Positions 6,268-9,200 of a stretch of 44,685 nucleotides of DNA are shown here, piece by piece. Origin of the DNA: Enoplolaimus lenunculus (taxonomy: Eukaryota). The stretch lies in the NCBI GenBank assembly GCA_030248215.1, contig JASANG010000957.1, forward strand, positions 372,001-416,685, given 5' to 3'. How positions within the stretch are numbered: position 1 is the stretch's first letter; each line of letters begins with the position of its first letter. Under the pieces are notes generated by a model. That model was given only the letters and a program-made list of their open reading frames with translations. It searched no databases and was not told the DNA's origin. Made by a program: the position numbers and the translations under genes.

Positions 6268-9200
6268 ATGGGAGACCAGGATGATCATGAATTCACTTTC
6301 GAGTCCGGTGACGCGGGCGCCTCAAAGACGTTCCCTAAACAATGCAGTGCACTTCGCAAAGGTGAAGCATGTTGCATTAAAGGTCGCCCATGCAAAATAG
6401 TCGAAATGTCAACCTCAAAAACAGGCAAACACGGACATGCAAAAGTGAGTGTTTTTAGGTTTCATCCGTAAACTCTCGATTAATGCTTCAGCAATCTTAT
6501 TTAGCTGTAGGTGTGGCTAAACGCTGTATAGTGCAATTGGCGCTTTATTGAAAGTTTTACAAGCGCCCCCACTTAAAAATTCCCAGCGGACCGTGGGCTC
6601 CGATTGATCCTCCCATTCGGCGCGACCCAGCGAAGGCCAAAATTTATATAATTTTTTCAAGTCGGGGTTCGGATTTATATATACTTATTAGTGACTGTAT
6701 CTACTATATACTTTGTTTTAAGAGATTTAGGCACTCCTTCGATGGATATAGGGTCAAAAATTAATTAAAACGAAAAAACGGCTTTTTGCAATACGTGATC
6801 AAAAAACTTTTCGAGTCGGCGCGGCTTGATGAGCAACACAATGGTGCATTTTTTCACCGTCAACTCGCCCCATGAACCTCCGCTTTTCTAATGAGAAACT
6901 AAGCAGGATATGGGGGATATGCCGCCCCCCTCAAACCGCTCACACTAAGCTAGCAACTCGCCCTATGCGTACCTGATAATTACCATTAAGAGCAAGTTAA
7001 ACCTTGATACGCGAAAAATCTGAAAAAAATGGGGGAAAAGAAATTTTTTATGAGAAAATGTAACACAAAGACCAAAATTTTTGCATAACAACGCATATTT
7101 CGTTTCTTATTTATTTTTTGACCGTATAACGCAGGAGGGCGGAGATTTCTGAATATATAGTGTTTTCACAACAAAAATTTCTAGGTACGGGTGTTACAAA
7201 AATATCCGGGATCGGGAATGCAATGATTTAATATAGTCGCATTCCAACTTAAGAGTTTGTACAGAAATTTTGCCTAAGCGAACCAGTGTGTTCTGTTTTA
7301 TCAAAATAGTCGTTTACTGCTAGATACGCGTGGTTCTGTTTTGAAATGAAACGTTGAGTTGAAAACGCTTCTTAAGACGCATCGATTCAACTAAGCATTT
7401 CACGTAAATGCGGCCGTGGTTAGGCCCCTCTAAATAAAGTGTTCGCCTCAGGGTTAGATCTGGGGCCAGGGTTCTGATGCCACTCTAATGGATGCACGTC
7501 AGAGTATTATCTGAATTTCTGCAAGATATCCATTCCTGTTTGGCATTGAACAGCGCAACATCCGGAAATATTACCGCGTTGTTGTGCTAACAAAACTTGA
7601 AAATTTTGTATTTGTTATATTATTATATATACATAGTTCAAATCCAAGAGGTTGTCTTTTATTTCATTCCTTTTTGCTTAATAAGTTGTCAGATTAAACT
7701 ACCTGTGAACGTTTTGTAAGATTGTTTAAAACGAAGAACAATTCACGAAAAACTGTTTTACTAGTTTACTAAAAACTTAAAAAGTAATTCGGTGTCGAAA
7801 ATCAAGAAATAAATTCTTCCGGCAAATTTATTTCTTGATGGAAACGTGAACGTATAACCGGATATCCGACTCCGGCAAAACAGTGCTGCCCGGCGTCGGT
7901 ATTCTGCCGGAAAGTATAGAATCTTTACTGTTATTTATTACCAAAATACCAATATTTCGCTTTGAATTTAGTTCTAAATGACAAAACATGCTTCACGCAA
8001 CTCAGTTAATACTAAGGCTCTTATAGAAACGAAATATTGCATGTTACTGCATGAAAATACTACATAAGCGTATCTTAGTTTCACTTTTTGTTGAAGTATG
8101 CGCTTCAATATCCGGTTCTGACAGTAAATGTCCGACTTTGGTATTTTTTTTGGCATTCTGTGGGACCGTGATATGTTCTACAACCAGGATTGTAATGTAG
8201 TTGATTGTTGTATTGTTATAGGTTCATCTTGTTGGAATAGATATATTCAGTGGAAAAAAGTATGAAGATATCTGTCCATCGACTCACAATATGGAATGCC
8301 CAAATGTAAAACGTCAAGACTTTCAGGTGCGTAAATCTGAATTTCAACCTATTAGTTAGATGTGTCCCAGGGCATGATTTGTGCTGGGGTTGAGGACAGC
8401 GTTTCAGATTGATTAACAGTTGTGACTGTTCTAGTTTGGTTATGTGAAAAACGTAAAATATATTATCTTTTTCATGCGCGTAGCGAAAATTTTCAGTTAG
8501 GAGATGGCGTTGTCTAGGCGACTAAAAGTTGCTGTAATGGTTGAGTTCTAAAAAATTAGCTGGCGAAACGGGCGAAAAGCTTGACACAATATTAAAATTG
8601 ATGTGCCTCAGTGAAAAATTTAGATATCGTGCAGGTTCAAAATTTGAATTTTGATCGATAGAACCCCCAGATCTACCCTACTGTGTGTAAAACTATTAAC
8701 CTTTCAAGCGAGTAGCTATATACACGTACATAATTTTAGAATCAAATCTTTCAGTAACAGTCGGAACATGTTTCTGCATTTAAATATAATAGAATAATAG
8801 ATACATATATGACGGTCTCAGTAGAGTAATAGATATATGACCGTCTGTTCACACTAGTTCGGTTAACAAAACAAAGGACCACTATGTAACAAATAGACCT
8901 TAAAACCAGAAAAATTTGACTAGTACACCCAGCTTGCTTTTCAAAAATTCAGAAAACAGTTCGCAGTTGATGTGGCATCTGGTGTTAATTGATTTAGCTA
9001 ATGGCAATTGGTGATGACGGATTCACTTCGTTGTTGGATTTGGACACTTTGGATGAACGCAACGACTTGAAAATCCCGGAAGGTGATTTGGGTCAACAGA
9101 TTCGAGATGCGTTCGAAAAGGACGAGTCTGGTATTTTGGTAAGTTTATTAAAATTATTATCTTATCTTTTGCTTACCTGTATATTGTGTAGTGCATATAC

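Follow-up and report, generated by a model that had tools for sequence, protein, structure and literature searches.

The 44,685-nt stretch of DNA analysed here (the window) carries on its plus strand a four-exon gene for the translation factor eIF5A. Exon 1 (6268–6444, 59 codons, GT donor at 6445) matches PF21485 with an E-value of 7.5e-21 and exon 3 (8998–9138) matches PF01287; exons 2 (8222–8326) and 4 (10747–10815, stop included) complete the gene. Within intron 1 (6445–8221), on the same strand, lies a candidate structured RNA of 386 nt (7210–7595), which a sequence-only reading of the window had proposed to be a telomerase RNA; the placement in eIF5A intron 1 was borne out. A GC box (7137–7142) and a TATATA element (7155–7160) are found ~50–75 nt upstream of the putative RNA start and could represent an intron-internal promoter or a chance occurrence. 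The rest of the window contains a long many-intron gene on the minus strand (20231–39098) with RRM matches (PF13893, PF11835) and a Gly/Pro-rich exon, which by likeness we take to be of the hnRNP L/PTB type. It also holds two related tandem arrays of 154–175 bp units (23967–24525 and 36311–36959) and dispersed palindromic repeats with TTCCGG-rich ends (995–1058, 3484–3538, 10355–10700, 26135–26682, and 32492–32856). This palindromic family reaches a summed depth of up to ~800,000 at 10329–10500 and is probably behind several of the best-folding segments.

The closest named protein to the window eIF5A is that of Romanomermis culicivorax, with 111 of 132 positions identical over the three exons compared. 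A tree of 37 rows, which took in 36 of the 120 protein matches and a window protein that was a residue too long where the last two exons join, places the latter outside a supported Rhabditida clade (96/87) and groups it with environmental proteins. Judged from this gene, the host lineage is a nematode outside Rhabditida, and probably an early-branching one of clade I or II. A metagenome scan with eIF5A exon 1 and its donor returned a single locus (L001, 1–955), which belongs to a distant animal and has an intron 1 of 216 nt lacking any template that reaches 8 nt; its first three introns stand at the same positions as those of the window gene.

TTAGGC telomeres are given for the clade I nematodes Romanomermis, Soboliphyme, and two Trichuris species in the available part of the supplement of PMC10760449, where the clade II species examined is left out as possible contamination; a TTAGGC telomere is likewise given, in a source available in part, for Xiphinema (clade I). 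Within the window, TTAGGC is the sole telomere-like hexamer found in tandem. Our assignment of TTAGGC as the telomere repeat of the source species is drawn from these relatives and not from its own chromosome ends. The array at 4806–4953, previously cited as matching the proposed template, gives no direct telomere evidence because it lies inside a very high-copy dispersed repeat with degenerate TTAGGC units (4765–4953, no strand assigned), the summed depth of which in the DNA runs is ~227,000 versus 37 for single-copy sequence. A second copy of this TTAGGC-bearing element is present at ~44,490–44,620, the 5′ part being common to both.

Copy number of the candidate was assessed in three DNA runs from two samples of one study; the search of sequencing runs listed these and no RNA run. 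Among the matches listed (24 of the 44 pieces), its own contig was the only one to cover 7351–7539 at 80% identity in all three runs, in agreement with a single-copy locus; the other genome matches listed were short pieces of <50 nt. A repeat-like piece of 44–49 nt at 7162–7210 has several short look-alikes elsewhere in the genome in these runs, and for this reason the 5′ end of the RNA was placed near 7210, just past it; the 3′ end was set 3 nt past an ACA. The hairpin at 7188–7208 that had been counted as part of the RNA is present in the letters, yet it overlaps the piece with look-alikes and probably lies outside. A phage search with the candidate stretch gave no match. The second sample shows one difference in the 386 nt (a SNP at 7454) and ~13 over the other pieces listed, numbers too sparse to speak of constraint. 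In one of the two folds the SNP replaces a predicted G-U pair by G-C (−15.3 to −16.7), and in the other it occupies a loop position, a change that may fit the modelled structure, if weakly. In the same sample the contig graph branches right past the ACA box, where a 60-nt contig matches 7564–7593 and then departs.

The claim that ~410 nt of the intron are foldable held: 7185–7595 folds with z = −4.58 and 7210–7595 with z = −3.71, and in either case none of 100 shuffles was as stable (another value for the candidate, −5.03, comes from 10 shuffles). The candidate ranks second among 111 equal-sized segments, in a frame set on the candidate itself, and the background is structured, with z below −2 in 12.8% of 446 short segments. 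The argument that strand preference marks a plus-strand RNA fails, because the reverse strand folds almost equally well against its own shuffles (z = −3.31 for minus versus −3.71 for plus over 7210–7595); after correction for G+T content, the strand asymmetry of the candidate ranks 20th of the 111 segments. No other non-coding RNA family was recognised. Rfam returned no match at gathering score over the whole window, its telomerase RNA models did not match the candidate, nor did the covariance models for RNase P, RNase MRP, SRP, 7SK, and snRNAs, and at E up to 10 the sole match inside the candidate was an irrelevant 17-bit one to a CRISPR repeat.

The motif letters named beforehand (the hairpin arms, GCCTAAGC, the P2 stem, CGTTTAC/GTAAATG, the 3′ hairpin at 7552–7588, and the ACA) are all in place. 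The putative template, GCCUAAGC (GCCTAAGC), occupies 7272–7279 and would provide a full TTAGGC repeat together with 2 nt for alignment. A template needs one repeat and at least 2 nt for alignment, and GCCTAAGC supplies both, with TTAGGC taken from relatives; GCCUAAGC is the sole TTAGGC-compatible 8-mer in intron 1. Templates of 8 nt are described for the apple snail in the available text of PMC8480181 and for C. inopinata and C. brenneri in that of PMC12921731. Animal telomerase RNAs are 200–500 nt long with the template 40–70 nt in, and the 386-nt candidate, with its template 63 nt from the putative 5′ end, falls within these ranges. Two other templates were considered and rejected: a minus-strand TTAGGG-type template, CTAACCCT (7457–7450), has the SNP at 7454 inside it, and related nematodes use TTAGGC; a perfect 11-nt template at 21703–21713 has a folding z of +1.2 and no pseudoknot match. 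This latter sequence, TAAGCCTAAGC on the plus strand, is a perfect Caenorhabditis consensus template in unstructured surroundings.

Ensemble folding predicts a stable 5′ hairpin at 7215–7245 (p 0.99) and, directly 5′ of the template, a local hairpin at 7252–7271 (p 0.78–0.90) with 7 A-U/G-U base pairs (2 G-U). The second hairpin resembles the P1.1 boundary helix, which is ancestral in animals according to the available text of PMC8480181, and it forms in place of the long-range P1 helix proposed earlier (7262–7270/7513–7521), the ensemble probability of which is 0.0 and the forcing of which costs ~10 kcal/mol (−115.9 vs −126.2). The best P1 that would enclose both template and pseudoknot is a 5-bp pairing of 7210–7214 with 7417–7421, the probability of which is 0.51 in a single constrained fold and 0.0 in other folds. 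The single-stranded linker between template and P2 measures 0 nt in the candidate, compared with 7 nt or more in the available protostome rows of PMC8480181.

Immediately downstream of the template, a P2-like stem of 13–15 bp (7280–7336) is predicted to close a loop of 21–24 nt that opens with G-UUUU. The predicted 5′ strand of P3, with its UUU (7309–7317), has two possible partners, 7401–7414 (AAA at 7406–7408; −6.8 kcal/mol, extendable with a bulge) and the 7348–7353 region (AAA at 7349–7351; −6.4 kcal/mol). The CGTTTAC/GTAAATG pairing proposed earlier as a pseudoknot corresponds to the first of these partners. A long hairpin (7342–7402) is predicted between P2 and the distal partner; it was rejected as P2.1, which belongs between template and P2a. 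The putative pseudoknot was scored by a descriptor taken from published alignments (G-U[UC]UU, G-C closure, UU[UC] paired to [AG]AA), the loop range of which was widened after the candidate was known. With the loop capped at 20 nt the candidate is missed, its loop being 21 or 24 nt versus mostly 16–19 in the published rows available from PMC8480181.

In its strict form, the descriptor passed one of 362 anchors in the window, namely the candidate, and 68 of 78,130 shuffles at 70% of the observed energies, with 3 at full strength. The window has 15 template-compatible sites, 14 of them scorable, among which the candidate folds best and is the sole full pseudoknot match. We also ran 90,000 template-anchored Markov simulations, equivalent to approximately one genome of template-compatible sites when extrapolated from the 15 in 89,370 nt. 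At 70% of the energies there were 30 passers, 3 of which carried an ACA hairpin as well, and at full strength there were none. The lowest downstream folding z among the 30 passers was −2.8 versus −3.11 for the candidate, so that none was as good. Hairpin-ACA sites at 70% energy number 22 in 89,370 nt, and the co-occurrence of a template, a pseudoknot-like fold, and a hairpin-ACA-NNN end occurs nowhere else in the window and seldom in simulations. With its anchor relaxed, the descriptor gives 39 window sites, of which 2 have a template close by, which indicates that folds of this kind are more frequent in real sequence than the Markov null allows. On a rough reading, the number of chance look-alikes this good expected per genome lies between a few hundredths and a few tenths.

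The 3′ part of the candidate (7468–7595) folds with z = −4.15. Upstream of it, a GC-rich stem region (7423–7467), which contains the sole SNP, takes alternative folds: the GGCCCC/GGGGCC stem described there earlier forms with p 0.67–0.82 when 7404–7414 is open, but with p 0.008 in the free fold. A long interrupted hairpin follows (7471–7551, with AGAGUA 7501–7506 paired) in the place of the eCR4/5-like stem of protostomes. The eCR4/5 domain has no sequence signature in the available text of PMC8480181; the candidate has long predicted stems at this position. The likeness to P6.1 suggested for a small hairpin weighs little, because P6.1 is absent from protostome telomerase RNAs as far as that text goes. 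The candidate would end (7553–7595) in a 35-nt terminal hairpin bounded by GC...GC, followed by 2 nt, an ACA box at 7590–7592, and 3 nt. No ANANNA H box was found before the terminal hairpin; the nearest, AGAGTA at 7501–7506, lies ~45 nt upstream and is paired (p 0.92). An H-box look-alike at 7543–7552 is also predicted to be paired (p ~0.95) and has G at position 6, which is A in 18 of the 18 protostome rows available from PMC8480181. ACAAAA at 7590–7595 was rejected as an H box, there being by eye no ACA past the downstream A/U-rich hairpin.

We estimate at about 45% the probability that 7210–7595 encodes the telomerase RNA of a nematode, probably an early-branching one, and that it would be cut from eIF5A intron 1. 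What speaks for this proposal is the single copy, the lack of a match to another family, the TTAGGC telomeres of relatives, and the rare co-occurrence of parts; what the candidate lacks is the H box, a firm P1, and the linker. The rarity of such a combination by chance, set against four misses, which is many, brings the odds near even. As the H box, P1, and the template linker were looked for and not found, we do not file the candidate as a member of the family; if real, it would work like an animal telomerase RNA. Since pattern searches have failed in nematodes, a true telomerase RNA of this group may well look different from those of other animals.

A serious, if rather unlikely, account is that the intron is an ordinary one, probably the decayed remnant of an old palindromic mobile element, with an 8-mer and hairpins side by side through chance and no RNA made. 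Hairpin-forming repeats are indeed abundant, with 15.5% of the window having an in-window copy, and top-folding segments are many; both strands of the candidate fold about equally against shuffles, ~90,000 template-compatible sites are expected per genome by extrapolation, relaxed pseudoknot-like folds are common, and the canonical parts that are missing are those a chance match would lack. However, no second copy of 7351–7539 appears at 80% identity among the matches listed in the three runs, and a palindrome old enough to be unique would normally be past pairing. The modelled stems contain 15 G-U among 113 pairs and no A-C single mismatches, and in 90,000 simulations no sample equalled the candidate in the strict descriptor, the downstream folding, and the ACA end together.

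Still less probable, and in our view distinctly doubtful, is that another intronic structured RNA, either an orphan H/ACA- or scaRNA-like one or a member of an undescribed family, carries the template-like 8-mer by chance. Such an RNA would suit the single copy, the folding throughout, the sense strand of a housekeeping-gene intron, and the hairpin-ACA end. It would also suit a second ACA (7550–7552), since the distance between this ACA and the upper stem of the 7476–7547 hairpin is 16 nt, as in a guide pocket. This account is weakened by the missing H box and Rfam match and by simple scans of all three eIF5A introns, which found no two-hairpin H/ACA or C/D RNA; moreover, it would be an extra coincidence for an 8-mer that suits a template to stand right in front of a U-rich, pseudoknot-like loop. 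RNase MRP/P, an sbRNA/Y RNA, and a microRNA cluster were weighed by eye against their usual features and set aside, with no support from Rfam. A cis-acting structure or poison exon regulating eIF5A splicing is very improbable: an acceptor-like TTTCTAG does end at 7184, from where the exon-1 frame meets stops at once (at 7185 onwards), but this site lies inside the 7162–7210 piece with look-alikes elsewhere, and by eye no strong donor closes the stretch.

Should the telomerase RNA reading be correct, the RNA would be released from the spliced intron, the lariat being cut back as far as a core shielded by protein, as is reported for C. elegans (Takeda et al., via the available text of PMC12921731). 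Dyskerin, bound to the ACA hairpin, would fix the 3′ end near 7595. The last two bases of the primer (GC) would pair with 7279–7278 and TERT would copy 7277–7272, adding TTAGGC, with the hairpin at 7252–7271 stopping the copying at the 5′ edge of the template. The 7280–7336 stem and its U-rich loop could form a pseudoknot and a U-A-U triple helix with one of the two AAA partners, and the stems at 7423–7551 may act as a second TERT-binding domain. Germline expression would be supplied by a ubiquitously needed translation gene; the C. elegans eIF5A paralog iff-1, given earlier as germline-expressed, is called germline-specific in the available text of PMC9046455.

According to the available text of a February 2026 study (PMC12921731), two Caenorhabditis groups are the only nematodes with a known telomerase RNA, searches by homology and by covariance do not succeed, and introns of germline genes are the next ground to search; an earlier animal-wide search, as far as its available text goes, found no telomerase RNA in nematodes. 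Our literature search, in which coverage of full texts was partial, returned no telomerase RNA hosted by eIF5A and none from a nematode other than Caenorhabditis. We offer only tentatively the possibility that this is the first nematode telomerase RNA outside Caenorhabditis, with eIF5A as host and a maturation that relies on one ACA hairpin and needs no H box. If true, it would reveal the shape of nematode telomerase RNA before the Caenorhabditis form and bear on whether intron hitchhiking is a recurring strategy; intron-borne telomerase RNA would either have arisen twice in nematodes or be ancestral and have moved between hosts. With an ancient and easily found intron as anchor, the proposal is testable in public genomes of early-branching nematodes such as Romanomermis, Xiphinema, Trichuris, and Trichinella.

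Compared with intronic box H/ACA snoRNAs and scaRNAs, the candidate is similar in residing in an intron of a translation-factor gene and in its hairpin-ACA-NNN end, and different in having no H box, no Rfam match, and no clear two-sided guide pocket. Their hairpin-H-hairpin-ACA layout was not found in it, and the usual H/ACA snoRNA is about one third of its length. A literature search gave no support for snoRNAs hosted by Drosophila eIF5A.

Among nematodes, telomerase RNA is known only from nmy-2 intron 2 of 21 Caenorhabditis species, and its location in other nematodes is stated to be unknown (PMC12921731, available text). The same text confirms the origin given earlier for C. elegans terc-1, an nmy-2 intron; the accompanying statement that host genes differ across nematodes is absent from it. 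Like Caenorhabditis terc-1, the candidate sits on the sense strand of an intron of a protein gene, with long intron flanks that would need trimming, has a putative TTAGGC template of 8 nt or more preceded by a predicted P1.1-like hairpin, and would end with one terminal hairpin and an ACA. Unlike terc-1, it has eIF5A rather than nmy-2 as host and comes from a far more basal lineage, its GCCUAAGC register lacks the TAAGCCT core, it has no H box and no favoured neP-like long-range stem (p 0.0), and the P5 motif of the available PMC12921731 supplement was unrecognisable in it by eye. Of the features that define terc-1 (nmy-2 intron 2, the TAAGCCT core, and the neP stem), none was found in the candidate.

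The H/ACA telomerase RNAs of molluscs, annelids, brachiopods, and phoronids, as far as the available text of PMC8480181 describes them, have a firm P1 and P4, a template linker, an H box, and a CAB box, all of which the candidate lacks. Its pseudoknot loop is longer than theirs and does not show their usual UUU-CAG junction, the distal P3 strand comes after an inserted hairpin of 61 nt, and the terminal hairpin, at 35 nt, is short. At the same time, it agrees with them in size, in an 8-nt template, and in requiring no P6.1. The predicted order of parts is also similar to that available for protostome telomerase RNAs in PMC8480181: P1.1, template, P2, U-rich loop, and a P3 of UUU/AAA, then one or two long stems, a terminal GC...GC hairpin, and ACA plus 3 nt. 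The GC-NN-ACA-NNN end of the candidate is the pattern of most of the available protostome rows. In its layout, the candidate is closer to the mollusc and annelid forms than to terc-1.
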